Part shown: piece by piece, positions 1 through 20,506 of the stretch | Layout of the letters: every line of letters begins with the position of its first letter | Position numbering within the stretch: the stretch's first letter is position 1 | NCBI RefSeq assembly: GCF_014280175.1 | Contig: NZ_CP047931.1 | Coordinates: 1,410,001-1,442,000 of the forward strand | Length of the DNA: 32,000 bases | Reading direction: 5' to 3' | Source of the DNA: Synechococcus sp. A15-28 | GTDB taxonomy: Bacteria > Cyanobacteriota > Cyanobacteriia > PCC-6307 > Cyanobiaceae | Translations under genes and position numbers: made by a program | The notes under the pieces: model-generated | Seen by the model: only the letters and a program-made list of their open reading frames with translations | The model's database searches: none | What the model was told of the DNA's origin: nothing

Positions 1-858
1 GAGGCTGTGAGCACCGGGGTGATTGGCGCCATGAAGCGTCAGAACGATTGGTTCTGCAGCACCTACCGCGACCACGTCCATGCCCTGAGCGCCGGTGTTC
101 CGGCTCGGGAAGTGATGAGTGAGCTGTTCGGCAAGGAAACAGGCTGCAGCAAGGGACGAGGTGGATCCATGCACCTTTTCTCCAAGGAACACCACCTGCT
201 GGGGGGCTTTGCCTTCATCGCCGAGGGCATCCCCGTCGCCCTGGGGTCAGCCTTCACCAGCCGCTACAAACGTGATGCTCTCGGCGATGCCTCAAGCAAC
301 GCTGTGACGGCAGCCTTCTTTGGTGATGGCACCTGCAACAACGGCCAGTTCTTCGAATGCATGAACATGGCGCAGCTCTGGAAGCTGCCGATCCTGTTCG
401 TCGTGGAGAACAACAAGTGGGCGATCGGCATGGCCCACGACCGCGCCACCAGTGATCCGGAAATCTGGCGCAAAGCAGCGTCCTTCGGCATGGCTGGCGA
501 AGAAGTCGACGGCATGGACGTGCTTGCCGTTCGTGCTGCGACCCAGCGAGCCCTGGAGCGGGCTCGGGCCGGGGAAGGTCCCACCCTTCTGGAGTGCCTC
601 ACCTACCGCTTCCGCGGTCACTCCCTCGCTGACCCGGACGAACTCCGCGCCGAACAGGAGAAGCAGTTCTGGGCCCAGAGAGATCCACTCAAGGCTTTGG
701 AACGGGACCTCTGCAACGCCAATTTGGTGAGCAGCGATGAGTTGCGAAGCATCGAGAAAGAGATCGATGCCATCGTTCAGGACTGTGTGGAGTTCGCCCT
801 TTCCGCCCCGGAGCCCGATCCAGCGGAGTTGACCCGCTACATCTGGGCCGAGGACTGA
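1..858 (+). CDS. pdhA: Pyruvate dehydrogenase E1 component, alpha subunit (5'-truncated by window edge)
   Basis: The reading frame is open to nt 1, and the track's GTG at 7 is internal. The translation carries TPP-dependent E1-alpha motifs ([39 protein letters not shown]). The stop is at 856-858. Confidence 0.9.
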
Positions 859-879
859 TAAGGCAGCCGTCCCGGCAGC

Positions 880-1821
880 TCAGATCCCGCTTGGCAGCCG
901 CCGGGTCAGATTGCGCAACTTGCGCAAGGCCTTGAGCTCCACCTGACGCACACGCTCTCTGGAGACATCCATCAAGCGTCCGATCTCAGCCAGGGTGTGA
1001 CGCTCGTTGCCCTCAAGACCGAAGCGAAGCTTCAACACGTGCTGTTCCTGCTCGCTGAGGTGACTGAGCCAGCGTCCGAGCTGCTCGTGGTGAATGCGTT
1101 GCTCAACGATGTCAAGCGGCTCATCCAGGGAGGAGTCGGCAATGAGATCACCGAGGAAGCTGCGACCCTCCTCCCCGTTCACAGGAGCATCGAGACTGCT
1201 GGTGGTGAGGGCCTGTCTCAGGAGTGAATCAAGCTCATCCAAAGGGATGTCCATCGCCTCAGCGATTTCCACACGGCTGGGCATGGCACCGAGCTTGTGG
1301 GCGAGATCAAGACTCACCTTGCGGATTGTGGTGAGTCGCTCGCTGAGATGCACCGGAAGCCTGATGGTGCGGGACTGACAGGCGATGGCACGGGTCATGC
1401 TCTGACGGATCCACCAGAAGGCATAGGTCGAGAATTTGTAACCGCGGGTGGGATCAAATTTCTCGACGGCACGCTCAAGCCCCAGGGAACCTTCCTGGAT
1501 GAGATCGAGAAGTTCCAGGCCCTTTCCCTGATATTTCTTGGCAACGCTCACAACCAGGCGGAGGTTGGCTTTCATCATCCGTTCCTTGGCCCGTCGACCG
1601 ATGCGAAGCATCCGGCGCTGCTTACCGGTCAGCTCGTGGTCTTCAAACGTTTTGGAACCGTCTTCCGTCAGAGCCATCATCGACTGGACCTGATTGCCCA
1701 GTTCGATTTCTTCGGCAGGGGTGAGCAGCGGGATGCGGCCGATGGTGGCCAGATACCAGCTGACAGGGTCACTGCTGCGGCGGCGCTGGGAATCGATGGT
1801 TTTCTGAGCTGATGAAACCAT
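880..1821 (-). CDS. RNA polymerase sigma-70 family factor (cyanobacterial group-2-like)
   Basis: 313-aa ORF with region 2 (YKFSTYAFWWIRQ), region 3, and a region 4.2 HTH (TLAEIGRLMDVSRERVRQVELKALRKLR). It is convergent with pdhA. Confidence 0.9.
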   Translation of the reverse strand: MVSSAQKTIDSQRRRSSDPVSWYLATIGRIPLLTPAEEIELGNQVQSMMALTEDGSKTFEDHELTGKQRRMLRIGRRAKERMMKANLRLVVSVAKKYQGKGLELLDLIQEGSLGLERAVEKFDPTRGYKFSTYAFWWIRQSMTRAIACQSRTIRLPVHLSERLTTIRKVSLDLAHKLGAMPSRVEIAEAMDIPLDELDSLLRQALTTSSLDAPVNGEEGRSFLGDLIADSSLDEPLDIVEQRIHHEQLGRWLSHLSEQEQHVLKLRFGLEGNERHTLAEIGRLMDVSRERVRQVELKALRKLRNLTRRLPSGI

Positions 1822-2134
1822 TGCGTGTCCTCCGCCGTGGTGAGAGAACCTTCTTACGAAGATCAGAAAAACAGAAGTGTTTTCAGCAACCTTTCAGATT
1901 TGTGCGAGCGAATCGAAACACTTCATGTTTCCCTCGCAATTGAGAACAATGTCCTCATCGGACCATTAAATTTTTCGTATTGAAAGCCTCATCAATCAAG
2001 ATGAATTCACAGGGATTGTCCTGAATAGCTGACGACAATCGCAGCGGTGGTGTACTCCGCAAGCTGAACAGCTTGTCTGAACAGAATCACCCCATACCAC
2101 GACCCCACACACTGGAGACAGGTCCACACCCCCG

Positions 2135-3331
2135 ATGAGCAGCGTCACCAGCTCAACTGATCGCCTCCCATCCGCAGCTGGAGAAGCAGCACTGGAGCGG
2201 CTACGGGCCTGGCCGGGTGAGCACCGTGTCGCCGTTGGGCTGTCCGGAGGAGTGGACAGTTCCCTGACCGCAGCGTTGTTGGTGGAGGCTGGTTGGCAAG
2301 TGGAGGGCCTCACCCTCTGGTTGATGAGTGGTAAGGGTGCCTGCTGCGCCGAAGGCCTCGTGGATGCAGCCGGAATCTGTGAGCAGCTCGGCATCCCCCA
2401 TCACGTGGTGGATACACGGGACACCTTCCAACAGGAAATCGTGCAGCGGCTGGTGGATGGCTACCGCGACGGCATCACCCCTTTGCCCTGCTCCCAGTGC
2501 AACCGCTCAGTGAAGTTCGGCCCGATGCTCGAGTGGGCCGCCGAACACCGGGGGCTGCCCAGGATTGCCACAGGCCACTACGCCAGGATCCGTCACGGCG
2601 GTGCACAGGGCCGGCATCAGCTGCTGCGGGGGCTCGACTGCCGTAAAGACCAGAGCTACTTCCTCTACGACCTTCCCCAGGATGTGCTGGGACGCATCGT
2701 GTTCCCCCTCGGCGAGCTCACCAAAGCCGACACCCGACTGGAAGCGGCGCGACACGGCCTGCGCACGGCGGAAAAACCGGAAAGCCAGGATCTATGCCTG
2801 GCGGATCACCATGGCTCCATGCGGGCCTTCCTGGACACCTATCTCCCCCCGCGACAAGGCGAGATCGTGCTGAGTGACGGCACGGTGGTTGGTGAGCATG
2901 ACGGCATCGAGCACTTCACCATCGGCCAACGCAAGGGTCTGGGTGTGGCCTGGAAGGAGCCGCTTCACGTGATCCGGCTGGACCCCGCCATGAACCGCGT
3001 GGTGGTGGCGCCCCGGGCGGAGGCCGGGCGGCGCAGCTGTGTTGTGGGCGCCATCAACTGGATCTCCATGGCACCACCCCAGCAGCCATTGGAGGTGGAG
3101 GTTCAGGTGCGTTACCGCAGTGAACCCGTGGCGGCACAACTCACACCAATCGCCCATGAACCGGAGGATGAAGCGCGGAAGCGGCCCTATCGCTGCCGGC
3201 TGCAATTCACCGACGATCAGTTCTCCATCACCCCTGGACAGGCGGCCGTCTTCTACGACGGGGAAACAGTGCTGGGGGGAGGGTTGATTCAGCGGGACGA
3301 CCACGACCAGCCGCTGACCAGCCGGGCGTAG
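2135..3331 (+). CDS. mnmA: tRNA 2-thiouridine(34) synthase MnmA
   Basis: 398 aa with PP-loop [17 protein letters not shown], and the conserved KDQSYFLY motif. The exact start is uncertain. Confidence 0.9.
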
Positions 3332-4725
3332 CCCGTGAGCTGGCTCCGCAGCTGGAGATCCGTCACCGCGACAGCTTCGCTGCCCGCCTCCAGGAGTTGC
3401 TGCACCGAGCCATCCGCCGACACCAGCGCCGTCGGCCCCGTGTTCGCCACACTCAAAACGTCGCGTCCGGTTTCAATCGCCCGCAGCTGAGCCAGGGCCA
3501 GAAATTGCCGCTGCAACAGCTGGGGGTAGGGATCGAGATTAGCGATCGTCAACAACCATTCAGCCCCTTGCGCAGACGCTTGAGCCAAAGCCCATCCGTG
3601 GCTGATCTCGTAACAGATGGCGATGGCGGAGGGGGATGGCCAGGCCTCGGCATAACGAGACGCATTTCCCGGCTGAAGCCCCCCCACCGCCGACAGCCCC
3701 CGGGTCAAGCCAGCCGGCAACGGTGGCAACCACTCACCCAGTGGAACCAGACGGTGCTTGTCAACGAGGGGCTCCAGCCCGGCTAGGCCCGGCAACCCCA
3801 ACAACACACTGCTGCGCAGCTGCCCGCGAACCCAGCGAAAACCTCCGCTGATCAACGGCAGGGGCAACCCATCCACATCATCCGGCTGCCAGCGGGACGG
3901 CAGGGTTCCCTCCGGGGCCACCAACGCCTGCACCTGCAGGGCCTGGGCCTGCTGCAAGGCCGATGACAACGCTGCGTTGAAGCGCCGCTGGCGGTCCGGG
4001 CTGAATTTCTCACGGGTGGGAACCGCCGGCTGCCAGGCGCCAAGTCGCAGGGAAGCGAAGGCGGGCGGCGGAACCAAACTCAACGCCCCCAAGCCATGCG
4101 CCAGCAGCAGAGAGAGCAACCAAGCGGTGCTGCGTTTCCCCCGACGGCGCCAGAGCTGCCAGAGCCCCCAGCCCCAGATCAGCTGAAGCGTGGCCAGTCC
4201 ACCACTGCCAAGCCAGCGGGCCAGGCCAGCCAGTGGCCGGTCCAGAGGCAACACACTTCCCCCGACACCGATCCAGAACAACGGAGACCCTTCCAGAAGC
4301 AGTTCGGCTCCCCCCCAGACCAAAGACAGCAGCAGCACGACGGAGAACCGCCAGCCCCCGTCCCTGAACCGGCACATCCGCGCCAACAGAGACCAGAGCA
4401 GCAGCAGCAGGGCTGCGGCAACGCCGCAGCACAACCAGAGCGCAACAGCCACCGGCAAGCTGAGCCAAGCCGGCACGCCCATCCAGGTGAGTGGATGCAA
4501 GCCAAGAATCCAGCGGTGGCTGATCAGGACGGCAAACATCCCCCAGAGCGCCGCGTTCCGCGGTCGGTCCGCCAGCGACCACAGCAGGGCCAAGGCCGGA
4601 AACATCGACAACGGTCCGGCGACCCCAGGGGCCAGTCCGGCCAGGACTCCACCCAGAACACTTCGCAGCAGAGGCTGTGATCGGAGATCGCCCATGGTCA
4701 ATGGGATTAACTTGTCACGCATCAC
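3289..4725 (-). CDS. lnt: Apolipoprotein N-acyltransferase
   Basis: 478 aa. The N-terminal half is very hydrophobic with multiple TM segments. The C-terminal half is a CN-hydrolase domain with the catalytic-Cys context [10 protein letters not shown]. Its 3' end overlaps the mnmA 3' end by 43 nt. Confidence 0.8.
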
Positions 4726-4801
4726 TTAATCCGCCAGATCGCAGTGCTTGCAACTGTTCTGAAGCACGAGCACAGTCCGGTTGTCCAACGGACTTCAGCC
4801 C

Positions 4802-4996
4802 ATGGAACTGCAACTGGAACAACCACTGACATCGGTTCTCAGCGTCAAAGTCGCTTCTGACGTGGAGCCACGCCTTGATCACCACTGTGCCCGGCTTCAA
4901 CCCAGCGGCACCCTGACCCGCGCTGCCCTTGTGCGTGCCCTGCTTCGTAAGGGCCTGGCCGAGCTGGACGAGATGGAGTCAACCAGTGACCGCTGA
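4802..4996 (+). CDS. Ribbon-helix-helix (CopG/Arc-like) DNA-binding protein, 64 aa
   Basis: ATG at 4802 (the track uses TTG at 4781). The pattern is a beta-strand (LSVKV), helix (DVEPRLDHHCARL), turn and helix (TRAALVRALLRKGLAEL), typical of RHH. An inverted repeat GTGCTT-N12-AAGCAC lies at 4744-4767 just upstream. It is unclear whether this gene belongs to the host or the element. Confidence 0.5.
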   Translation: MELQLEQPLTSVLSVKVASDVEPRLDHHCARLQPSGTLTRAALVRALLRKGLAELDEMESTSDR

Positions 4997-5204
4997 TCTC
5001 TACACCCGCCCGCTAAGAGCTTCGGTGCGTGAACTTCTGCGGGAAGACAACATTGACATCGCGGAAGCGCTTTATTCCGACAGCGATTACCCAACAGCAC
5101 TCAGCAATCTTGCAGAAGTTCGTGTTGCAGCTCAGAAGGTTGTCTTTGAAGCTGATGCGCTCATGTGCGCAGTGCTTGTTAAGGCGATAAGGGAAGACGA
5201 TTGA
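4986..5204 (+). CDS. Hypothetical acidic helical protein, 72 aa
   Basis: The GTG at 4986 overlaps the stop of the upstream RHH gene (GTGACCGCTGA), suggesting an operon. G+C drops within this ORF. A weak hairpin GGGCG-N9-CGCCC follows the stop. Confidence 0.4.
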   Translation: MTADLYTRPLRASVRELLREDNIDIAEALYSDSDYPTALSNLAEVRVAAQKVVFEADALMCAVLVKAIREDD

Positions 5205-5237
5205 ATCATCATACGGGCGGGTAATTCTCGCCCATTG

Positions 5238-5265
5238 TTGACACTTTTAGTTCATCTCTCAAAAT
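5238..5265 (+). promoter_or_regulatory. Putative sigma-70-type promoter for the replication operon
   Basis: TTGACA at 5238-5243, a 16-nt spacer, then CAAAAT at 5260-5265, in an AT-rich spacer about 30 nt upstream of the 5294 ORF. This is a pattern match only. Confidence 0.25.
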
Positions 5266-5293
5266 GGACTCATAAGACAAATTTTTGGTTCTT

Positions 5294-5464
5294 ATGAAGT
5301 TCAAGCCGCGTTACAAGTATCCGCACATTGCTGCGACATACCTAAGCGATGAACTGCTCAGCCAAGTCACCAAATTCTCTGCTGTTCACGACTGCAGCAA
5401 ATCAGAAGCGATTCGCCTCCTGATGCAGAACGGCCTTGCCGCAATGCTTTTAGACGACGGCTGA
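5294..5464 (+). CDS. Small ribbon-helix-helix-like regulator, 56 aa (not in ORF track, <60 aa)
   Basis: Hand translation: MKFKPRYKYPHIAATYLSDELLSQVTKFSAVHDCSKSEAIRLLMQNGLAAMLLDDG*. The strand-helix-helix layout (ATYLSDELLSQV... SKSEAIRLLMQNGL) is typical of CopG/MetJ-type regulators. It is the first gene of the rightward Rep operon. Confidence 0.5.
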   Translation: MKFKPRYKYPHIAATYLSDELLSQVTKFSAVHDCSKSEAIRLLMQNGLAAMLLDDG

Positions 5465-5527
5465 GAAAAATGAAGGGCCGCCCTGACAAGCCAACCCTTC
5501 ACCAATCCGACCAATGGAATTTTAACC

Positions 5528-5680
5528 ATGAGACGATCTGATGCTGGATTTTCCGTCCTAATTGCTTCCATTTACAGCGAGATTGAGGACTGGATTGATA
5601 AGCACCCTGACTGCTCACCGCACGCCTCACTTGCGGTTGATCGTCTGTTGCTGCTTCTAACGACAATGGGACAGATGTGA
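5528..5680 (+). CDS. Hypothetical 50-aa protein, translationally coupled to Rep (not in ORF track)
   Basis: Hand translation: MRRSDAGFSVLIASIYSEIEDWIDKHPDCSPHASLAVDRLLLLLTTMGQM*. Its stop TGA (5678-5680) overlaps the Rep ATG (5680-5682) as TGATG. Confidence 0.35.
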   Translation: MRRSDAGFSVLIASIYSEIEDWIDKHPDCSPHASLAVDRLLLLLTTMGQM

Positions 5681-7668
5681 TGACAACTGATGGTTGGGAT
5701 GCGGAGGAGATTGATCCGACGCATAGGGACGAGTGGGTCAATGGTTCTGGCATCAGTCCTGAAATCACTGAATTAAATCTGCAGTCACTCAGTGGTCCGC
5801 AGGCTCTTGAAGCCATTACGTCAAAACGTCTGGAATCAGCAGGTGGTCATGGGCAGCAGTACGCCACAGGCGAAGTTGCCAAGGTTCTCAATCGTTATGA
5901 GCACCTAGACGCTGGTGGCTGGTGGTGCAGTGCCACAGGTGACTCAGGCTGCCTGAAACCAAACACACCACGCAAGAACGACAAAGGCGACCTGATCAAA
6001 TACGAGAACCCGTTAGGTGTTCCCTGCGGTGTCTTCCAGCTCCAGATGCCGGATGAGACCTACTGGCCTGAGCGTGAGCGGAACTGCAGCGAAACCATTG
6101 TCATCACAGAAGGCGCAAAGAAAGCAGCGGCGCTCCTGTCATGTGGCATCCCTGCCATTGCTGTTGCGGGCATCTGGAATGGCACACCAAAGGACGACCG
6201 TGACCAACACTGCCTGCACCCAGATCTGATGCGTTGGGCAGGGCATCGCATCGTCATCTGCTTTGACTACAGCGACAAAGCACGCGGCAGAAGAAACGTC
6301 AGCAAGGCAGCCCTGCGTCTTGCGCATCAGCTTTATGCCAACGGATCGCCGTGGGTTGGCACCGCACACTGCAAGGGTCCCGAGAAGGGCATTGATGATC
6401 TGCTGGTTGCTCACGGCCATGCCGCCGTTCATCAACTGATCGCCTCTGCGCAAAAGGTTGACGTTCAACGCGAGCTTGAGGACCGGAAAGAGCCAGAGCG
6501 GATCAGGCAAGCCGCCAACAAATTTCTGGACTGCGACGACGAGGCAGAGCGTGCCGCCTTCAGATCTAGGTTCTGCAGCAATAAACGCATCAACATCAAG
6601 GACTTCAGTTCGGTCGTTAATGAGCAGCTCGCTTTGCGGCATCCATTGCAAAAGCTGGAGTCACGGCCGCTGACACCCGATGAGCTTGATGCTGAGCCGG
6701 TTAACGACGCCAGAACGTTCTTTGATCAGCTTTTGACTGAACGCTGGTCAACCCTGATTGGCGGCAACAGAGGCAGCACCAAGACCATCCTCACGTTGCA
6801 ACTGATGGTGGCGTTGATGAAGCAGCGCAGCCCTGACGTGATCGGCTTGCGTCCTGAAGCAACGGGACTGCGTGTCCTTTACGTGTGCTCTGACGCGATG
6901 GCTGAACGCATCAGGGACTACCTGACTCAGATGGGCTGCTGGAGAGATCCAGAAGTTCGCAAGGGCATTCGGATCTGGGGCAACTCGCACACACAACGCA
7001 AGTGGACCATCAGTGACCTTGATGGATTGGAGAAGCAGATGGAGGAATTCAAACCAAACGTTGTCGTCATTGACTCGCTGAAGGGCGCCCTTGGGCCATT
7101 GCTTGAGGACATCTCAAGACCGATCATTCGGCATCACATGGATGCGGTGCATGACATCGTTCTGCGCAGTGCTGCATTGCTGTGGATCCACCACGCCAAC
7201 AAGATTGGAAAGATCGCAGACAACGAGGCACTACAGGAAGCACCTGACATGGTCTACCTGCTGGAGAAAGAGCAGAACGAACTGGTGAGCCTGAAGCCGA
7301 TCAAGTGCCGTGGCGGTGAAGGCATCCGTCGTCAGTACCAACTGCAGGGCGATTTCCTCTGGCCTGAGTTGACGGAGCAGAAGAAGACGTCAGACATCAG
7401 TAAGGTCAACAGCGACGTCATGGAGTACGTCAGGAAGCAAAACCAGCACGACATCAAGCCCAGCATCAGGACCGTGACAGAAGGGCTGCCTCAGCACTCC
7501 GCTGAAGCGATCAAGTCCAGCATCAAGCGGCTTAGAGGCAAGGAGTGGCTGCTGGGTAAGCCAGATCCAAAGGACCTGAGATCGTGCCTGCTGGAAGTGG
7601 CGCCAAAGTTTTTTGACACCCCCTCCCCCCCTGTAAAAGGGGCATGGCCCATAAAAAACGGCCCATAA
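5680..7668 (+). CDS. Replication protein: N-terminal Toprim/DUF3854-like primase-type domain plus C-terminal RecA/DnaB-like (AAA_25/RepA-like) ATPase. It resembles cyanobacterial plasmid CyRepA-type Rep proteins.
   Basis: About 662 aa. The N-terminal half has WV.GSGI, KYENPLG, and VITEGAKKAAALLSCGIPAIAVAGIWNG...VICFDYSD (a Toprim-like acidic cluster). The C-terminal half has a P-loop-like LIGGNRGSTKTILTLQL, Walker B VVVIDSLKG, and LLWIHHANK. The start is ATG 5680 (or GTG 5677). Confidence 0.85.
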   Translation: MTTDGWDAEEIDPTHRDEWVNGSGISPEITELNLQSLSGPQALEAITSKRLESAGGHGQQYATGEVAKVLNRYEHLDAGGWWCSATGDSGCLKPNTPRKNDKGDLIKYENPLGVPCGVFQLQMPDETYWPERERNCSETIVITEGAKKAAALLSCGIPAIAVAGIWNGTPKDDRDQHCLHPDLMRWAGHRIVICFDYSDKARGRRNVSKAALRLAHQLYANGSPWVGTAHCKGPEKGIDDLLVAHGHAAVHQLIASAQKVDVQRELEDRKEPERIRQAANKFLDCDDEAERAAFRSRFCSNKRINIKDFSSVVNEQLALRHPLQKLESRPLTPDELDAEPVNDARTFFDQLLTERWSTLIGGNRGSTKTILTLQLMVALMKQRSPDVIGLRPEATGLRVLYVCSDAMAERIRDYLTQMGCWRDPEVRKGIRIWGNSHTQRKWTISDLDGLEKQMEEFKPNVVVIDSLKGALGPLLEDISRPIIRHHMDAVHDIVLRSAALLWIHHANKIGKIADNEALQEAPDMVYLLEKEQNELVSLKPIKCRGGEGIRRQYQLQGDFLWPELTEQKKTSDISKVNSDVMEYVRKQNQHDIKPSIRTVTEGLPQHSAEAIKSSIKRLRGKEWLLGKPDPKDLRSCLLEVAPKFFDTPSPPVKGAWPIKNGP

Positions 7669-7752
7669 ATTTTGGATGTGGGCCATTCGGGTTATGAGAT
7701 ATGGGCCGCGCATAATCCCAGTCACTGACTGGTGTTTCCCTTGATATGGGCT
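7646..7752. repeat. Iteron-like repeat cluster (candidate replication origin)
   Basis: GGCCCATAAA occurs exactly at 7646-7655 and 7660-7669. Inverted copies follow: GTGGGCC at 7678-7684, ATGGGCC at 7701-7707 and ATGGGCT at 7746-7752. GATATGGGC is repeated at 7698-7706 and 7743-7751. A/T-rich stretches lie between them. The cluster straddles the Rep stop codon (7666-7668). Confidence 0.5.
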
Positions 7753-7808
7753 GTGTGTAGTGGTGTGTGTGTTGGGAGGAGAGAGAGTTCCTCCACTTCT
7801 ACTGTCAT

Positions 7809-8060
7809 CTAATCAGAAGCAAGCACCAGCTCCTTCGGGATGCGCTTCAGGCCACCGGCAACGTATGCCTCCCAGCAATCGCCTACGTCGCCGACGATCA
7901 GGATTGGGATGACTGTCCCTTTGTGTTGATAACGGGCATGGACCGGATCTATCACGTCTGCCTCACAAATACGGGTCCTTTCTGTGTAGCGCAGCGTAGG
8001 TAATTTCGGACCGCCTTCATTATTTAGCGTCAGATAAGTTGGACCTAAACTGCCTAGCAC
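7809..8060 (-). CDS. Hypothetical protein, 83 aa (GTG start)
   Basis: ORF-track entry and the last gene of the leftward small-gene string. Its composition is more protein-like than the overlapping + strand ORF 7767-8003. I recognise no motif. Confidence 0.3.
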   Translation of the reverse strand: MLGSLGPTYLTLNNEGGPKLPTLRYTERTRICEADVIDPVHARYQHKGTVIPILIVGDVGDCWEAYVAGGLKRIPKELVLASD

Positions 8061-8075
8061 TATCTATTAGCCAAG

Positions 8076-8252
8076 CTAATCAAATTTGTGGTCAACAGCA
8101 GATGATAGCACGGTGGAATGGTCTGCGCATCGTTTCTCCCGTACGGCCTGCCAGTACCGCCTCGCCTGCGCACTACTCAGGGCATCATCAGCAGGGTTAG
8201 GCCGCATTGGAACGTCATCATCAGGCTGATGAGAGGCGAATTGCTGAGGCAT
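8076..8252 (-). CDS. Hypothetical protein, 58 aa (not in ORF track)
   Basis: Hand translation: MPQQFASHQPDDDVPMRPNPADDALSSAQARRYWQAVREKRCADHSTVLSSAVDHKFD*. It sits between the AlpA-like gene and the 83-aa ORF on the same strand. Confidence 0.25.
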   Translation of the reverse strand: MPQQFASHQPDDDVPMRPNPADDALSSAQARRYWQAVREKRCADHSTVLSSAVDHKFD

Positions 8253-8278
8253 CAGTAGACAAAACTCATGCCCTTAAT

Positions 8279-8479
8279 TTATCGCTGTGTGTATAGCAGC
8301 AAGGCCATCTCACAGGCGGGCAAGTTAAAGCGCAGATGCCCGCGAGACGTTGCACCAGAACGGTAGTAGTGCACTCCGCCTTTGAAATAGCCTTCCTTCA
8401 TCAGCCGCCATTGTGTCGTTCGTCCTAACCGCAGTTGCCGTCTCATTTCTGACGCTTTTACCCAATCTGATTGGAACAC
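8279..8479 (-). CDS. AlpA/excisionase-like helix-turn-helix DNA-binding protein, 66 aa
   Basis: WVKASEMRRQLRLGRTTQWRLMKEGYFKGGVHYYR fits the AlpA/Xis HTH_17 pattern (L..E....LG.S..T.YRL.K.G.FP). It has a GTG start at 8479 and is divergent from the capsid gene. Confidence 0.7.
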   Translation of the reverse strand: MFQSDWVKASEMRRQLRLGRTTQWRLMKEGYFKGGVHYYRSGATSRGHLRFNLPACEMALLLYTQR

Positions 8480-8498
8480 CTTGGAACAAGTTGGTTGA
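8471..8498. promoter_or_regulatory. Helically phased tandem repeats (candidate operator) in the alpA-like/MCP divergent control region
   Basis: The sequence reads TTGGAACAcc TTGGAACAag TTGGTTGAtt. There are two exact 8-mers and one degenerate copy at 10-bp spacing. The first copy overlaps the alpA-like start codon. Confidence 0.35.
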
Positions 8499-8542
8499 TT
8501 TCATTCTATCGGCCGTAATGATATAAACACGCGAGGTAATCA

Positions 8543-9553
8543 ATGAATCACACCATCACCAAGAAGCGACCATATAGCTTCAACGCACTGCTCAGTTCGC
8601 TCAGTTCACAAGTCCCTGATAAACAGGCCACATGGGAGCAGAACTTGTCACTGCAGGCTGAGAAGTTCTACGGCCAGCACAGCATCCAGAAGAAGCAGGA
8701 GAACGCGGCGTTCATCCCTACCCGCCAGATGGTGCGTGATCTGCTGACGGGTACTGCCAGCAGTGGTGGTGACTTGGTGGCCACATCGGTGCAGAAAGTC
8801 GCAGACAGTGTCAGACCTGTGACGGTGCTTGAGCGTGCCGGTGTTGAGCGGATTGAAACCGGCGGAGAGAACCTGACCATCCCGCGCTTTGCCAAGGCCG
8901 ATGCCGGATGGATTGCGGAAGGTGCGGACTACACCGCACTCACCACTACGAGCACCAGCGTGGATACCAGTCCCAAGCTCGCCAGTGCCCGCCTGTCTTT
9001 CAGTCGCCGCCTGAAGGTGTTGGTGCCTGACGTTGAAGGGTCAGTGCTGCAGGAAGTTGGCCGTGCAGTCGCCGGATTGATTGAGAAGGGCGCGATTCAA
9101 GGCACCGGCAGCAATTCACAACCGCTTGGCCTGCTCAACCTGCCTGACGCCTTGTCGCAGACCTTCAGCTCCGCAACTCCCACCAGCGATGAGCTGGCAG
9201 AAATGCTGGAGAGGCTCGGTGATGCCGATGTGGATCTGCGCAAGGTGGTGTTCCTGATGCACCCGAGCACTGCCGCTGATCTGATGAAGACCCGCGTGGA
9301 TGCCAGCAGTGGCGCGTTGGTGCTCAGTGACCTGAAGATTCACGGGCTGCCGGTATTCATCACAAGCAATGTCACCGAGGACAAGGTGATCGCACTGGAT
9401 CCGAGTTACAGCCGCCTCGTCTACTTCGGCAGTGCGCAAGTCGTCGTGGATCCCTTCCGAGGAGCCGTCACTGGTGTCACGCACACACAAATCCTGAACG
9501 CAGCGGACTTCGTTTGCACGCATCAATCCAGTGTCTGCATCGGCTCCGCTTAA
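8543..9553 (+). CDS. Phage major capsid protein, HK97 family (PF05065-like)
   Basis: 336 aa. Family-typical blocks are present: SGGDLVATSVQKVADSVRPVTVLERAGV, LTIPRFAKADAGWIAEGADY, IQGTGSNSQPLGLLN, and VFLMHPSTAADLMKTR. A GAGG Shine-Dalgarno lies 8 nt upstream of the ATG. Confidence 0.85.
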   Translation: MNHTITKKRPYSFNALLSSLSSQVPDKQATWEQNLSLQAEKFYGQHSIQKKQENAAFIPTRQMVRDLLTGTASSGGDLVATSVQKVADSVRPVTVLERAGVERIETGGENLTIPRFAKADAGWIAEGADYTALTTTSTSVDTSPKLASARLSFSRRLKVLVPDVEGSVLQEVGRAVAGLIEKGAIQGTGSNSQPLGLLNLPDALSQTFSSATPTSDELAEMLERLGDADVDLRKVVFLMHPSTAADLMKTRVDASSGALVLSDLKIHGLPVFITSNVTEDKVIALDPSYSRLVYFGSAQVVVDPFRGAVTGVTHTQILNAADFVCTHQSSVCIGSA

Positions 9554-9659
9554 TCGCGGAGGGTCGGACCGGTGCAGGTAGAGCGGTTTCTTCCATGGCT
9601 GCTCAACAGGGGTCGGTTGTTGAGGAGCCGGCCCCGCCCTATTCACTCAGAAGCGACAG

Positions 9660-9866
9660 ATGAACCGCGACTACATCAACTGGCTCACGTCACTGCCTAA
9701 TAACCGTGGCGTCAGGGATAGGCAGATCAACGTCTGGATGTCGGGCTATGCGCCTCTACCCGATGAGATTGACCTGCAGCACTGCGAGGAGATGCAGCAG
9801 CGGTGGTTGGTGCGGGAGTGCCCTGACGGTGTGCTGGGAAGGCTTTGGCGGTGGTTGCACGATTGA
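9660..9866 (+). CDS. Hypothetical protein, 68 aa
   Basis: ORF-track entry downstream of the MCP on the same strand. No motif recognised. Confidence 0.35.
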   Translation: MNRDYINWLTSLPNNRGVRDRQINVWMSGYAPLPDEIDLQHCEEMQQRWLVRECPDGVLGRLWRWLHD

Positions 9867-9873
9867 GATGAGA

Positions 9874-10806
9874 TCAAAGCCCACCATTTCCTTCTTCAAA
9901 GAGCAGGAATAGCTCGCCTTCGTAACCCAATTCGCGCATCATATACGCCCAATCAGCTTCATCCGCTGGATCGTAATCATCGCTTTTGCTGATGTTCTCA
10001 GCGGCCCACATGGGCCTGAGATTTCTCCAGTTGAAGCAGACAATCTGCTGTTCTTCATCAGTGAGGTCAAAGCTTGCGCAGGGTCTGATGTGATCTACAT
10101 GCCAGCCTTCCTTGCCATAGTTATCCCAGCTCATCCCTTCTTCCCAATTAGCTGCAAGGTAAGCCTTGAAGTCAGCTATCTCTGCATCAATAAGTTCTGC
10201 TGTCTTCGCGGCCTTTACCATTCCCTGCTTCTTAAGCGCGTCACTTATTCGGGTGTTGAGGCGTGAGTGGAGCTTGAACTGAGGATCGTGCTTCAGTTTC
10301 CAAGTGCTTATCGGCATTCCTTTCTCAGCTTCAAATTTATCCTTCCATTGCTTTCTCGCTTTGTTGCGAGATACATGCCCTGCTTCGCTTTGGCTGTAAC
10401 GCCGATCAGCCTCAGCTTTTTTGCCACTGGCCACAAACTTAGCCTTCGCTCGCTTGGATGCCTCCCTGTACCAATCAGAGTCTTTGATTCTTTCATAGTG
10501 AGCCTTTCTTTTTTCCTTGGCACCTTCATCATTTTTGTGCCGCTGATATGACTCCCTTGCGACGCGAGCTTTATTGGATTTCCAGTTGGGATCGGTTTCA
10601 CGACGTTTCGCCTCGTATTCGCGGAAATAACCTTAAGCCGCTTTTTTTCTAGTGGCTATTCGCTTGCACTACATGCACTGTCCACCACTCGTCACACGTG
10701 GGGCAACATGCCCTTGTTTGCAGGTCGTGCCAGTGAAGTACTGCTTGAGCCCTTTTTCTTGGGCTTGCTTTCGGGAAAGAAATGGGCCGTAAATAAGGTC
10801 TTGCAT
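9874..10806 (-). pseudogene. Phage-type HNH endonuclease with an N-terminal zinc-ribbon and K/R/E-rich repeats, interrupted by two in-frame stop codons (TAG 10669-10671, TAA 10633-10635)
   Basis: One frame of 311 codons runs from ATG 10806 to stop 9874. The N-terminal segment is MQDLIYGPFLSRKQAQEKGLKQYFTGTTCKQGHVAPRVTSGGQCM*CKRIATRKKAA*GYFREYEAKRRETDPNWKSNKARVARESYQRHKNDEGAKEKRKAHYERIKDSDWYREASKRAKAKF. The track ORF (GTG 10434) follows, and it contains the HNH motif HVDHIRP...NWRNLRPMWAAENISK. The ATG overlaps the integrase stop as TAATG. Confidence 0.7.
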
Positions 10807-12674
10807 TATTTAGATCTCCTGCGCTTAGCCGGCCTGCCTCTGCGCCGTTGTTCAATTTTGTATTGAAGACCAGTTTCCTTGCCATCAGGATCAACAATAT
10901 TCATCAGTGCTCCTTTGGTCATTACTTCAGTAAGTGGTGGAGCATCTGGAAAGTTTCGGCGCCATGACTCTTCTGGGCCAATGGTTGCAATTTCATTGCT
11001 GAAGTCGTACTCCTGATCATGCCCGCCTACCTGCTGCTTAACCTCCTCCACGTTGATAAAGGTGGTAAGTGTCCCTTCCTTGCTAACCCATCCTTCTCCG
11101 AATTGAACATCCTTATGTCGGGTGTCAATTTCAAAAACCAAGCCTTCGCGTGTCAGCCAAGAGTTGAATTCATCACGTGCGTTCAGGTCGGTTCTGTCTG
11201 ACTCCATGAAGGCTGATAGGCGCTGCTTGACTTCACGCTCGGCCTCACGACTACTTGGCCGTCTCTCAAGCTTGGCTAGATGCGCCTCGGCCTCGTTCAA
11301 CGCTTGCTTGGCCACCACAAGGTCAGCCTCTGCCTCCCGTAGAGCCTCATCCCAAAGCAACAGCGCACTGTTCGGTGTCTCCGGCACAGCGTTCTTGATC
11401 TGATTCCGCTTGCTGCTGACCAGGTCCTCCAGTGGGCCAACAGCACCAGATGCCTTCAGGACCTTCTGACGCGCTTCAGCGGTTTCTGCATCGTGTTTGT
11501 CGTCTCCGAAGAAGTCACTCCACCTAAAAGTTCTGACATGCTCCAGCAGGGCCAGCTCGTCGTAGGGAATGTTCGGCGCAGTGCAGTCGGAGCGGCCAAG
11601 GACACGGCCATTGCAATTGAGTGAGAAGCCGTTGCGTGAACGCCTGACGCCAAGCCTGTGGCCGCATTCAGCACAGAAGGTCCTCTTCTCAAACAAATTG
11701 ATCCGCTTCCTGCCATTAGGGAGCCCGCGCACTCCACGTCGGCCTGCGATGCCGTCCCTGGCGGCCTGCCACTCAGTTGGCGTGATGATCGCCGGGTAGA
11801 CGCCCTTGGTGATGTCTTCCTTTTCGTTGCCCGACTTGTTCTGACGGTGGCCAAGCACCGCAACGTTCTCCAGCAACAGGTGGATTTCGGCTTCTGTGAT
11901 GACAGCGCCTGATCTGGCGAGCGTGATGCCATCTGCCTGAAGCTCGCGAGCAATGCGGCGGGCTCCAAGGTCCTTCGCCAGTCGGAACGCTTTCTGCACC
12001 CACTGGACTTCGTCTTCCAACAGCACCCAATTCCCGTCTTGATCAACGTCCAGCCATCTCGGGTAGCCAGGGTTCGTGTTGGTTTCACTCCTTGGGTTGA
12101 AGCGGAAGCCGCCGAACACTGCTGTTTTGCCATCGGCATGGGCTTCTATCTGCTGGCGGCGGTACTGAACAGCGCCCTGGCTGCGGGCCTGCTTCTCCTT
12201 CCATTCGCGGTGAGCTGAATCAGCAGCACCAGCAATCCTGTAAACGGTGCCACCTCCATCGCTGAGGCTTCTCAAAATCTCGTGGCCCCAGTCGCAAAAG
12301 CTGACGCCAACCCCGGCTCTGAAGATGTCGGTCAGCAGGTTGAAGCAGTCCTGCATGTCTCCTCGGCTTAGGCGCGAGAAGGTCTCCACGATGAGGATGG
12401 TGCCGTGCTGCACCCGGTGAGACCTGGCGTCCTCAAGGAACTGACCAAGGAGGCCCTTCTCAAGGTTCTTGCGGTTGCCGGAGATGGTTTCACGCACAAC
12501 CTCCTGCACGTCGTATTCGGGATGAGCTTTTTTCCACTCGGCTAGGGCTGCGTCCTGTCTGCTGAATCCGCTTTTCCCGTCTAGTGACTGCTCGCCCGTG
12601 CTGACACGCTGGTAGCAGATGGCCACTTTCGCGACCGGTGAGTTTTGCAGCTTGTCAGGCTTGGTGCGTGGCAC
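10806..12674 (-). CDS. Large serine recombinase (integrase)
   Basis: 622 aa. It has the resolvase catalytic motif VAICYQRVSTGEQ, a recombinase domain, a zinc ribbon CAECGHRLG...NCNGRVLGRSDC, and a long coiled-coil segment (EADLVVAKQALNEAEAHLAKLERR). The start is GTG at 12674 or GTG at 12626. Confidence 0.9.
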   Translation of the reverse strand: MPRTKPDKLQNSPVAKVAICYQRVSTGEQSLDGKSGFSRQDAALAEWKKAHPEYDVQEVVRETISGNRKNLEKGLLGQFLEDARSHRVQHGTILIVETFSRLSRGDMQDCFNLLTDIFRAGVGVSFCDWGHEILRSLSDGGGTVYRIAGAADSAHREWKEKQARSQGAVQYRRQQIEAHADGKTAVFGGFRFNPRSETNTNPGYPRWLDVDQDGNWVLLEDEVQWVQKAFRLAKDLGARRIARELQADGITLARSGAVITEAEIHLLLENVAVLGHRQNKSGNEKEDITKGVYPAIITPTEWQAARDGIAGRRGVRGLPNGRKRINLFEKRTFCAECGHRLGVRRSRNGFSLNCNGRVLGRSDCTAPNIPYDELALLEHVRTFRWSDFFGDDKHDAETAEARQKVLKASGAVGPLEDLVSSKRNQIKNAVPETPNSALLLWDEALREAEADLVVAKQALNEAEAHLAKLERRPSSREAEREVKQRLSAFMESDRTDLNARDEFNSWLTREGLVFEIDTRHKDVQFGEGWVSKEGTLTTFINVEEVKQQVGGHDQEYDFSNEIATIGPEESWRRNFPDAPPLTEVMTKGALMNIVDPDGKETGLQYKIEQRRRGRPAKRRRSK

Positions 12675-12792
12675 GCGGAATCGCCAGAACCCTTATGAAC
12701 ACAAGGATATGAGCCGTGTCAAGTCAGCTGTATTGACCATGGTCAGCGATGCGCAGCAGCGTCATCCTGATGCCAGGCCGCAACCGCGACGG

Positions 12793-17702: not shown

Positions 17703-18547
17703 CCGGACTGCTGCGATGTGGCCGTCATTGTCGCCCGTCGACGCTCCAGCAGGAGAGGCACGGCGGCGGCGGCCACATTCAGTGACTCCACCCGGGGACT
17801 GTGGGGCAGGGTCACGGCATGGGTGCAACAGGCCAGCAGCTCCGGATGAAGTCCTGACCCCTCTGTGCCGAGCACAAGGGCCGTGGGCAGACGCCAGTTC
17901 AGATCCCAGTAGGGCACCGCTTGCAGCGGAGCAGCTGAATCCGGAACGAGGGTGGCCACCACCTGCATCCCATCGGCGGCAAGACGTTTCAGTTCGTCCT
18001 TTAGTTGGCTGATCGCAGTGTCTTCATCAGGTCCAAAGCGGTGATGGGGCAGCTGAAGCAATGCTCCGGCTGAAGCCCGAAGGCTTTTGCTGCCGAGCGG
18101 GTCAACCCCTGATCCCAGCCAGACGTTCTGAACATCGGCCGCCAGTGCCGTCCGCAGCAACGTTCCAAGATTGCCTGGATCCTGAATCCGATCCAGTACA
18201 AGCAGGAAATGCACGTCCGTCGGTGGATTCGGCAGAACGTTGAAGGGGCACACGCACGCCACTCCGTCCGGTGTGGTGGTGCTCAATGCCGCTGTCAGCA
18301 CCTCATCGGTGACCAGACGACGTGGTGTCGAGGCTCCCAGCTGCTCCAGGAGATGGAGGTGGTGCTGACACCATCGCTCCGTGGCAACCAACTCCACCGG
18401 CTTGAGATTGCAACGAATCAGCTCCTGCAGAAGATGGGTGCCCTCAAGCAGCAGCAGCTCTTCGTCCTCTCGACCTTTTCGACTGGACAACGACCGCAAC
18501 CGCTTGACCAGGGGGTTCCTGCGACTGCTGATCAGGGAATCCGACAC
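17699..18547 (-). CDS. TrmH/SpoU-family RNA 2'-O-methyltransferase
   Basis: 282 aa with SpoU motifs LVLDRIQDPGNLGTLLRTA, LVLGTEGSGL and ESLNVAAAA. Confidence 0.85.
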   Translation of the reverse strand: MSDSLISSRRNPLVKRLRSLSSRKGREDEELLLLEGTHLLQELIRCNLKPVELVATERWCQHHLHLLEQLGASTPRRLVTDEVLTAALSTTTPDGVACVCPFNVLPNPPTDVHFLLVLDRIQDPGNLGTLLRTALAADVQNVWLGSGVDPLGSKSLRASAGALLQLPHHRFGPDEDTAISQLKDELKRLAADGMQVVATLVPDSAAPLQAVPYWDLNWRLPTALVLGTEGSGLHPELLACCTHAVTLPHSPRVESLNVAAAAVPLLLERRRATMTATSQQSG

Positions 18548-18564
18548 ACCCGACTGGCTGATCT

Positions 18565-18813
18565 TCAGAAGATTGTGTGCTTGCGAACCTTCAATTCTTT
18601 ATGGAAGGAGAGATCTGAACCTTCGAGATCAAGGCCATTAATGGCGGCGATTTCTCCTTTCAGTCCCTCAGCCGCAAGATTTTCGATCAACTTGTTGATG
18701 ACCTGATCTTCAACGGCAGCCTGATCAACTGAGTCAGGGGTCAAACGTTCAAGAAAGCGACCGACCTTGGCTGCGACGACCTCAGATGCGTTTGAAATCT
18801 TCAGGACGATCAT
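18565..18813 (-). CDS. Small conserved hypothetical protein, 82 aa
   Basis: ATG at 18813 (MIVLKISNASEVV...). The track's longer version runs into the tRNA-Leu gene. Confidence 0.5.
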   Translation of the reverse strand: MIVLKISNASEVVAAKVGRFLERLTPDSVDQAAVEDQVINKLIENLAAEGLKGEIAAINGLDLEGSDLSFHKELKVRKHTIF

Positions 18814-18847
18814 GACGGCGGAGAGGACCTTCTCCTGTAAACGGTAG

Positions 18848-18931
18848 TGCGGATGGGGAGACTTGAACTCCCACGATGTTGCCACCACTAGTACCTGAAA
18901 CTAGCGCGTCTACCAATTCCGCCACATCCGC
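18848..18931 (-). tRNA. tRNA-Leu (anticodon CAG)
   Basis: Hand-folded cloverleaf: acceptor GCGGATG/CATCCGC, anticodon stem CTAGT/ACTAG with loop TTCAGGT, a long variable arm, and T-arm GGGAG-TTCAAGT-CTCCC. CCA is not encoded. Confidence 0.85.
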
Positions 18932-19087
18932 TGGCGTGTCGCCCAAGCGACCAAGTGAACATACGGCATCGCCCCCCAGACCCCGAACCTGCAATTTGGT
19001 AATCGTTGAAACCAGTTTCGGCGCCGGCCGTCTAGACGGTCTCAGATCTGGTTGTCAAACTGCTTGCAATTGGGTGCAGGGCGTGAA

Positions 19088-20389
19088 ATGACAGCGACGT
19101 CCGCGGTGTCTCAGGAGATTCTCAATCCTCATCTTTGCATTGAGGGCCGTCGACGTCTTCAAGGGGTTCTGAAGGTCAGCGGAGCCAAAAATTCAGCCCT
19201 GGTCCTGATGACTGCTGGGCTGCTCACTGATGAGACTGTGGAACTGACCAATGTTCCCAATCTCACCGACATCAGCGGCATGGGCAGGATCCTGTCTGCC
19301 CTCGGCGTCGAGGTTCACCACTCAGGAGACAGCGTCGTCCTGAACGCCGCAAACCTCACCAGTCACGAACCCCCCTACGAACTGGTCAACAGCCTTCGCG
19401 CCAGCTTTTTCTGCATCGGTTCACTGCTGGGCCGCTTGGGTCAGGCCAGGGTGCCCCTACCAGGCGGTTGTCGTATCGGCGCTCGCCCCGTTGTTGAACA
19501 CATCCGCGGTCTCAAAGCGCTGGGAGCACTTGTCAGCGTGGAACACGGCATCGTGACCGCCTCCGTCAAAGGCAGCCGCAAGCGTCTGACAGGGGCGCCG
19601 ATCGTTCTGGACTGTCCAAGCGTTGGGGCCACCGAAACACTGCTGATGGCGGCGGTGCTGGCCGATGGCACTACCACGATTGAAAACGCTGCCCAGGAAC
19701 CCGAAGTTCAGGATCTGGCCAATCTGCTGAGTCAGATGGGTGCCGACATCAGCGGCGCCGGAGGACCGGTGATCACCATTCAGGGTGTCGAACGTCTCCA
19801 TGGAGTTCGCAACTATCCGGTCATCCCGGACCGCATCGAAGCGGGCACGTTCCTGTTGGCAGCAGCGATCACCCGATCACCCATTCGGGTGGAACCCGTG
19901 ACTCCAGAACACCTGAGCGCTGTGCTGCAGAAGCTTCGGGACTGCGGCTGCCAACTGGAGATTGATCACCGGGGAATTTCCATCACCCCTGGTGACATTC
20001 AGGCGGTCGACATCACCACCCAACCTTTCCCTGGTTTTCCGACCGATCTTCAGGCTCCGTTCATGGCACTGATGACCACGGCCAAGGGCACCAGCGTGAT
20101 CAGCGAAAAGATTTACGAGAACAGGCTTCAACACGTCGCTGAACTGCAGCGCATGGGCGCCTCCATCCGCGTTGAAGGCAGCACGGCCATTGTTGAAGGG
20201 GTGTCTCAGCTCAGCTCAGCCCCCGTCACCGGAAGTGACCTGAGAGCTGCAGCGGCCATGGTGCTAGCGGGTCTGGCGGCGAATGGCACCACCAAGGTGT
20301 CCGGGCTCAAGCATCTCGATCGTGGCTACGACAATGTCGAAGAAAAGTTGAACGCCGTTGGTGCGAACTTAAAGCGACAGCAGAGCTGA
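19088..20389 (+). CDS. murA: UDP-N-acetylglucosamine 1-carboxyvinyltransferase
   Basis: The sequence contains VSGAKNSAL, LPGGCRIGARPV (active-site Cys) and FPGFPTDLQ. The start is ATG 19088. Confidence 0.9.
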   Translation: MTATSAVSQEILNPHLCIEGRRRLQGVLKVSGAKNSALVLMTAGLLTDETVELTNVPNLTDISGMGRILSALGVEVHHSGDSVVLNAANLTSHEPPYELVNSLRASFFCIGSLLGRLGQARVPLPGGCRIGARPVVEHIRGLKALGALVSVEHGIVTASVKGSRKRLTGAPIVLDCPSVGATETLLMAAVLADGTTTIENAAQEPEVQDLANLLSQMGADISGAGGPVITIQGVERLHGVRNYPVIPDRIEAGTFLLAAAITRSPIRVEPVTPEHLSAVLQKLRDCGCQLEIDHRGISITPGDIQAVDITTQPFPGFPTDLQAPFMALMTTAKGTSVISEKIYENRLQHVAELQRMGASIRVEGSTAIVEGVSQLSSAPVTGSDLRAAAAMVLAGLAANGTTKVSGLKHLDRGYDNVEEKLNAVGANLKRQQS

Positions 20390-20423
20390 ATTCGGGGGCA
20401 TCACTACATACAATCCCTGATAC

Positions 20424-20506
20424 GGGAGCCTGGCGGAATTGGTAGACGCAGCTGACTCAAAATCAGCCGGCCACTGGTCTTGGGGGTTCAAGTCCCCCGG
20501 CTCCCA
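20424..20506 (+). tRNA. tRNA-Leu (anticodon CAA)
   Basis: Acceptor GGGAGCC/GGCTCCC, anticodon stem GCTGA/TCAGC with loop CTCAAAA, a long variable arm, and T-arm GGGGG-TTCAAGT-CCCCC. Confidence 0.85.

Follow-up and report, generated by a model that had tools for sequence, protein, structure and literature searches.

A lone HK97-fold capsid gene on an integrated, satellite-like island of Synechococcus sp. A15-28

What might an intact phage major capsid protein (MCP) gene contribute to a cyanobacterial mobile element that carries no other recognizable virion gene? The question is raised by a 32,000-nucleotide stretch of the marine picocyanobacterium Synechococcus sp. A15-28 (contig NZ_CP047931.1, positions 1,410,001–1,442,000; hereafter the window), in which an MCP homolog of 336 aa is encoded at positions 8543–9553 (+ strand) within an island spanning 4701–12736. 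A sequence-only reading of the window had described a solitary, intact MCP on a satellite-like element of about 8 kb, and had suggested that it substitutes for, or co-assembles with, the MCP of a helper phage to build a small shell. The island proves to be exactly 8,036 bp, and its MCP has an HK97 fold and lacks the protease and scaffold domains found in phage relatives. We consider the proposed role reasonable and favor it here: the island would be an integrative phage satellite whose lone MCP acts in the manner of Ccm from the staphylococcal island SaPIbov5, redirecting the capsids of a helper siphovirus, a reading to which we assign a probability slightly above even (roughly 0.55).

The MCP, identical to QNI42782.1, is encoded by an open reading frame (ORF) with an ATG start and a GAGGT Shine–Dalgarno sequence 7 nt 5' of it. 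It matches PF05065 Phage_capsid (E = 2e-19; 70.5 bits, cut-off 24.2), the PHROGs family phrog_617 'major head protein' (E = 1.8e-34) and TIGR01554 major_cap_HK97 (E = 1.2e-16; 60.8 bits, cut-off 27.5), which upholds the view of an intact capsid gene. In the last of these alignments, profile position 100 of 385 falls on MCP residue 58, leaving ~57 residues in place of the expected ~100-residue delta domain; the earlier estimate of ~55 residues before the conserved core, with the full delta domain absent, was therefore accurate. The HK97 shell domain is complete in the protein and is preceded by ~55 pre-core residues; a delta/scaffold domain of ~100 aa and a separate or fused scaffold are both lacking. 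The description of the gene as solitary also stands, as scans of the other island ORFs against Pfam, PHROGs, NCBIfam and PADLOC returned no portal, terminase, prohead protease, scaffold or connector. Among the several island ORFs still without annotation, all of 45–82 aa, a tiny accessory head protein is possible.

The fold was assessed with AlphaFold2. A run on 21 close homologs gave an unusable model (pLDDT 51), and ~90 more distant sequences were added for the final model (114-sequence alignment; pLDDT 86.1, pTM 0.83). In a Foldseek comparison with the PDB, the top matches were the capsids of the marine siphophage R4C, phiXacJX1, D3 and HK97 (E = 2e-16 to 1e-13), with a probability of 1.00 to R4C, D3 and HK97 and target-normalized TM scores of up to 0.79; matches in BFVD were HK97-family MCPs. 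This model-based comparison confirms the HK97 fold, which comprises an N-arm, an E-loop, a P-domain with spine helix and an A-domain. Encapsulins follow close behind the phage capsids in the PDB list (E ~1e-13), and the shared fold is the point in favor of an encapsulin-like, non-viral nanocompartment, which the sequence-only reading had also raised. We regard this alternative as highly improbable and reject it: no Linocin_M18/encapsulin Pfam match was found at E ≤ 0.1, no cargo enzyme is encoded nearby (the MCP gene has as its neighbors an HNH nuclease gene, a helix-turn-helix (HTH) gene and a small ORF), the MCP gene always shares an excisable element with integrase and primase genes, and the closest sequence relatives are phage protease–MCP fusions.

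The phage relatives also indicate where the protein came from. An exhaustive profile search returned 9,627 MCP relatives, the closest ~40 representatives of which share the short form; beyond these, most relatives are 545–890 aa long, and their match is confined to the C-terminal ~330 residues. Every phage-type relative from IMG/VR (27–31% identity) is an ORF of 600–970 aa, and isolate matches include the cyanosiphoviruses S-LBS1 (MCP of 631 aa) and S-CBS3 (836 aa); the MCP gene of each comes after the terminase and portal genes. According to Pfam, the long phage proteins open with a Peptidase_S78 prohead protease and close with Phage_capsid, with a linker between the two. When the profile of the satellite family was compared with that of the C-terminal domains of the phage proteins, the result was E = 4.8e-43 over satellite residues 7–335, and in the full-length alignment the satellite MCPs start at a conserved R-x-Y/F-S-F motif, shortly after the phage scaffold-like helices. 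This short start, taken together with the fused form of the phage relatives, identifies the island MCP, by alignment, as a derivative, without protease or scaffold, of a fused siphoviral head-assembly polyprotein, of the lineage that includes S-CBS1, S-CBS3 and S-LBS1. No earlier description of a derivation from a protease–scaffold–MCP fusion was found in the literature compared.

Insertion site and related elements

The island has a GC content of 54.5%, against 62.5% in its flanks, and its ends were located by comparison with empty sites. Eight island-free marine contigs or metagenome-assembled genomes (MAGs), retrieved through the product of the neighboring sodN gene, align to window positions 1–4700 and from 12737 onward. 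Their identity is 91.8–99.9% on the left and 97.7–99.7% on the right, and reaches at least 99.5% on both sides in seven; the outlier is the Tara contig L083 (91.8% and 97.7%). Both flanks meet with a 9-nt overlap in all eight, and these alignments show that the insertion was precise and mark the element as mobile. The 9-bp core, CCATGGTCA, forms attL at 4692–4700, where it holds the start codon of lnt (CAT on the + strand), and is repeated at the right end as attR (12737–12745). The empty site attB, atcgcCCATGGTCAgcgat, has the form of an imperfect dyad, atcgc-CCATGGTCA-gcgat, with its core at 8916–8924 of contig L085, and lies in the lnt/phasin intergenic start-codon region with no tRNA gene within 6 kb. 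The reconstructed attP contains a perfect 16-bp palindrome, ATTGACCATGGTCAAT, and the junction predicted after excision reads ...GTATTGACCATGGTCAATGGGATT.... This palindrome was sought in the related elements described below and found in none of them; this was to be expected, given that their integrases share only 28–36% identity.

The core overlaps two divergent start codons, CAT for lnt and ATG for a phasin-like gene in its long form. Both start codons survive insertion, but the region upstream of each becomes island DNA; expression of lnt must therefore depend on the left end of the island.

Relatives of the island MCP are mainly metagenomic. A word-indexed search retrieved 93 MCP clusters of 37–96% identity, nearly all 333–341 aa long and from metagenomes, and a profile search added a further group of 36–43% identity (318–343 aa); a scan of GTDB genomes gave only one relative, truncated, in a Cyanobium MAG. 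The contigs that bear these genes concentrate at 8.3–9.3 kb, and every readable context follows the same plan: an integrase, a primase/helicase, a divergent small HTH_17 gene, the MCP gene and a small ORF after it. This architecture recurs in contigs L081, L082, L093–L096, L100, L102 and L104–L106 (in part only in L102, L105 and L106), and no portal, terminase or protease was found in the at least 10 related elements examined. Serine recombinases are encoded in L081, L082, L104, L093–L095 and L100, and in L096 (MCP 42% identical) a tyrosine integrase (phrog_1) takes their place. All-against-all clustering of the ORFs from eight elements recovered the MCP and HTH_17 families in 8/8 each and the serine recombinase in 6/8, and yielded no conserved large protein of unknown function.

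A phage structural gene standing alone in a chromosome might suggest a decaying prophage that has retained its MCP gene. We find this scarcely credible and reject it. Many independent contigs, tandem forms among them, keep the minimal architecture at 37–96% MCP identity, and the Nei–Gojobori ratio of nonsynonymous to synonymous substitution rates (dN/dS) of the MCP gene, 0.14 against L081 and 0.18 against L082, shows purifying selection in these codon comparisons. Furthermore, the insertion is precise, the integrase is intact and near-identical genomes have an empty site. Among the related copies that we looked at, none lies inside a complete head module, and the phage homologs are of the distinct long fusion form; the earlier judgment that the gene is not a prophage remnant is thereby sustained.

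Two contigs, L081 and L093, consist of perfect head-to-tail repeats (1.8–2.0 units of 8,450 bp and 8,461 bp, respectively) with 0 mismatches over an overlap of 6.5–6.7 kb. These could represent free circular or concatemeric forms, or result from an assembler walking round a circle. An exact-repeat test for terminal repeats on unit-length contigs was negative, and tandem units occurred in these two contigs only. An IMG/VR viral contig harbors one relative. The IMG/VR contig L002 (UViG_3300027977_002433) carries two satellite-type MCP genes (536–1549 and 8968–9987) that are ~8.4 kb apart and 42% identical, and is, by sequence comparison, a pair of divergent family members in tandem; its 9,155-bp periodicity was accordingly rejected as a clean repeat.

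Further observations concern individual relatives. In a sister branch (MCP ~40% identical), L093 (8385–9134) and L095 (550–1299) each encode a 249-aa sigma-70-type factor, recognized by Sigma70_r2 and phrog_351 (E = 3e-45), which suggests that satellites of this family can reprogram transcription. In L100 (1–20494), an integrated relative lies amid toxin–antitoxin pairs (PIN/MazE and HEPN/NTase), cyanate lyase, Rad52 and Sipho_Gp157, and this island looks like a hotspot for mobile and defense genes. The metagenomic protein P0081 (523 aa) combines PF05065 (capsid) and PF13481 (AAA_25), and is either a primase–MCP fusion or a frameshift or assembly artifact in a related element.

Possible roles of the lone capsid protein

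In the favored reading, the satellite would bring its own integration (a large serine recombinase), replication (a primase–helicase) and regulation, with the MCP homolog as its only recognizable virion gene. Upon infection by a helper siphovirus, it would excise and replicate; its MCP would join procapsids nucleated on the helper portal, use the helper's fused scaffold and protease, and tilt assembly in favor of a small shell that fits a genome of 8–9 kb. Particles would then be completed by the helper terminase, possibly aided by the satellite HNH nuclease, and by helper tails, at a cost borne by the helper. HNH nucleases assist terminase cleavage in HK97-like cos phages, and such a role has also been noted for capsid-forming phage-inducible chromosomal islands (cf-PICIs). 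The derivation of the MCP from protease–scaffold–MCP fusions predicts the profile of the helper, namely a siphovirus with a fused scaffold and protease.

A more self-sufficient particle is conceivable, in which the MCP self-assembles without a scaffold into a complete, small (~T=3), DNA-filled shell, as in an autonomous mini-virus akin to the 'twilight-zone' genomes described below; we think this unlikely. The same doubt attaches to its corollary, that only the portal, terminase and tail are taken from a helper or that no portal is needed. Because the island supplies neither scaffold nor protease, a DNA-filled head built from its MCP alone is not to be expected, and HK97-type MCPs without a delta domain, as illustrated by HK97 gp5, generally fail to assemble. 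To our knowledge, there is also no precedent for packaging of double-stranded DNA without a portal and a terminase. The pre-core segment points the same way: it contains Glu32, invariant in all 114 satellite and phage sequences, and its occurrence in the phage fusions suggests a continued need for phage scaffold or protease partners. Ccm, by itself, forms nothing (PMC8569155). The case for a whole shell comes from the distance of the MCP from any phage MCP (25–31% identity), which suggests an old, independently evolving lineage; from a fold that by Foldseek is equally near to self-assembling encapsulins and to capsids; and from the report of more than 500 genomes below 11.6 kb in which an HK97 MCP is encoded and genes for portal and tail are missing (bioRxiv 10.1101/2025.06.18.659913).

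The MCP might instead serve interference alone, as a decoy that co-polymerizes with the capsid protein of the helper, so that head assembly is aborted or misdirected and the host population is protected. To us this, too, is an improbable role, and so is the mode of spread it implies, in which the element is not packaged and moves by another route such as vesicles. The absence of the protease and scaffold parts present in the phage relatives is what might be seen in a dominant-negative subunit, and population-level resistance through PICI-like tycheposons has been put forward, with tycheposon DNA also found in vesicles (Hackl et al., bioRxiv 10.1101/2020.12.28.424599). However, unit lengths are rather tight across divergent members (8.0–9.3 kb), which suggests a packaging-size constraint, one relative occurs on the IMG/VR viral contig, and the PADLOC scan of the island ORFs matched no defense model. 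In addition, Ccm couples interference with self-packaging (PMC8569155).

Several points weigh against the satellite reading that we favor. MCP similarity did not serve to nominate a helper: the top isolates (S-LBS1, S-CBS1/3 and Achromobacter phage Mano) show 24–27% identity, the best IMG/VR phage-type protein 30%, and, with 25–31% as the best phage MCP identity anywhere searched, no helper phage was pinned down. This low identity is compatible with the Ccm precedent but yields no helper pairing. No cos site, pac site or TerS was found for the island. The tandem contigs could reflect concatemer packaging in full-size helper heads, as in integrative mobile elements encapsidated in virions (VEIMEs), for which there would be no obvious need of an MCP; four units of 8.0–8.5 kb amount to 32–34 kb, near the genome sizes of S-CBS1, S-CBS3 and S-LBS1 (30.3–34.6 kb). 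Finally, a scaffold-less MCP might merely poison helper assembly.

Other genes of the island

The left part of the island (4781–5464, + strand) contains two or three small regulator-like ORFs. Among them are a candidate regulator of the ribbon-helix-helix type (71 aa; 4781–4996, +), whose family is present in 5/8 related elements and whose homolog in L102 weakly matches PF01402 RHH_1, and a repressor-like protein (59 aa; 5285–5464, +) with a weak match to phrog_4738 'transcriptional repressor' (E = 0.005). These are followed by a replication protein of 663 aa (5677–7668, +), in which a toprim/primase-like DUF3854 domain (PF12965, E = 1e-25) is joined to an AAA_25 helicase-type ATPase (PF13481, E = 2e-11), and which also matches phrog_239, DNA primase/helicase.

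Divergent from the MCP gene is a gene for an HTH_17 (AlpA/excisionase-like) protein of 66 aa (8279–8479, −). Its family occurs in 8/8 related elements, always adjoining the MCP gene, and paralogs in L096 and L100 match PF12728 HTH_17. A conserved small ORF of 58 aa, putatively coding, lies 3' of it (8076–8252, −), with homologous ORFs or DNA in 7/8 related elements. On the other side, the MCP gene is directly followed by an ORF for a small protein of 68 aa (9660–9866, +), the position of which is conserved. Homologs were found by tblastn in L081 (59%), L082 and L001; the protein has no family match, and relaxed Pfam thresholds on the small ORFs gave nothing useful. ORFs of 57–68 aa always come after the MCP gene in the island and its relatives (L081, 2665–2865; L082, 2209–2409; L093, 7361–7546; L100, 11090–11281) and have in common an Arg-rich stretch followed by a W-M/L-x-G-Y/W motif. 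Their products could be capsid or packaging accessories.

The right part of the island encodes an HNH-type endonuclease of 186 aa (9874–10434, −) and the large serine recombinase, or integrase, of 622 aa (10806–12674, −). The former matches phrog_1035 'endonuclease VII' (E = 3e-7) and phrog_28061 (E = 3e-8), and its translation contains the HNH motif HVDHIRP...NLRPMWAAEN; the latter matches PF00239, PF07508 and PF13408 as well as phrog_95, integrase (E = 5e-43). Between the two genes, a 45-aa ORF (10669–10806, −) contains a zinc-ribbon-like 'YFTGTTCKQGH' motif. At the equivalent position, L104 (2556–4082, −) encodes a 508-aa DUF4379 protein, of which the 45-aa ORF may be a remnant. A scan against Rfam found nothing in the island.

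Elsewhere in the window, GC content drops to ~56% at 18500–20500, between two tRNA-Leu genes (18847–18931, −, and 20424–20506, +). Because related island-free contigs are collinear there, this dip is probably not a second insertion.

Comparison with known systems

The sequence-only reading had presented a satellite that supplies only its own MCP as a new strategy. This part of it does not hold, as SaPIbov5 Ccm, MCP-only PICI-like tycheposons and the 'twilight-zone' HK97 genomes have already been described, and the kind of satellite seen here has thus been reported before. MCP-only satellites of marine picocyanobacteria have appeared in surveys. The practical value of the present example lies in a cultured, fully sequenced strain, exact att sites and natural, near-isogenic genomes free of the island; excision, the search for a helper and capsid analysis are therefore directly testable. 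If elements of this type do interfere with cyanosiphoviruses, they would bear on virus-driven mortality and gene transfer in globally important primary producers.

Among satellites with a capsid gene, the cf-PICIs and the Streptomyces satellites MulchRoom and MiniFlayer carry a head module that is complete with its packaging genes, namely those for a protease, a portal, connectors, TerS and TerL. The island resembles them in its own HK97-type MCP and its HNH nuclease, but has none of these other components. VEIMEs are marine elements of <5 to 17 kb that fill full-size helper heads as concatemers and have no major capsid gene, and in their cyanobacteria-linked module 3, 91% of members have a serine recombinase (Eppley et al. 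2022, PMC9618062). The small size and marine origin of the island and its primase/helicase, AlpA-like and HNH genes recall these elements, as may the tandem contigs seen in its relatives; in contrast to VEIMEs, the island family always carries an MCP gene.

The 'twilight-zone' HK97-MCP genomes comprise more than 500 complete genomes of 5–11.6 kb without portal or tail genes (Luque lab, bioRxiv 10.1101/2025.06.18.659913). The island shares with them an HK97-fold MCP and the lack of portal and tail genes, and its 8 kb falls within their size range. Whereas those genomes are metagenomic contigs without a host or an insertion site, the island is integrated in a cultured strain with defined att sites. 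Were its MCP to form a whole shell, no smaller HK97-type capsid that packages a genome would be known, and the island would provide the first example of such a genome in a cultured, genetically defined host. Encapsulins likewise have the HK97 fold and assemble without a scaffold; unlike them, the island MCP has no encapsulin family match or cargo gene and is found on a mobile element.

The closest functional precedent is Ccm, which belongs to cos-type staphylococcal pathogenicity islands (SaPIs; Carpena 2016, Hawkins 2021, PMC8569155). Ccm is a lone satellite MCP homolog of 355 aa, 24% identical to the helper capsid protein, with a delta domain of 87 aa compared with 128 aa in the helper; it is cleaved by the helper protease, takes up the pentamer positions and switches helper assembly to T=4 capsids (PMC8569155). 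Compared with Ccm by description, the island likewise has one HK97-fold MCP homolog and no other head gene, a shortened delta region (~57 aa, where the fused phage scaffold has at least 200 aa) and low MCP identity, here 25–31% to the nearest phage type. It differs in its host, a cyanobacterium rather than Staphylococcus, in its size (8 kb versus ~14 kb) and in its backbone, a serine recombinase and a DUF3854 primase standing against the stl, str, pri-rep and tyrosine integrase of SaPIs. Moreover, the phage relatives of the island MCP join protease, scaffold and MCP in one polypeptide.

PICI-like tycheposons include MCP-only members, carry large serine recombinases in a minority of cases and are abundant in marine viral-fraction metagenomes (bioRxiv 10.1101/2020.12.28.424599). 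Like them, the island is a marine picocyanobacterial element with an integrase and a primase/helicase, an MCP as its only packaging gene and no cargo. The main defining features of tycheposons are, however, a clade of tyrosine recombinases and integration close to tRNA genes, whereas the island has a serine recombinase and is inserted at the lnt start codon; it also resides in Synechococcus rather than Prochlorococcus, and its MCP was compared with the published ones by description only. Because the island has neither the tyrosine recombinase nor the tRNA attachment site, we do not assign it to the tycheposons. The element is best described as tycheposon-like or Ccm-like in function, and as a member of neither family.

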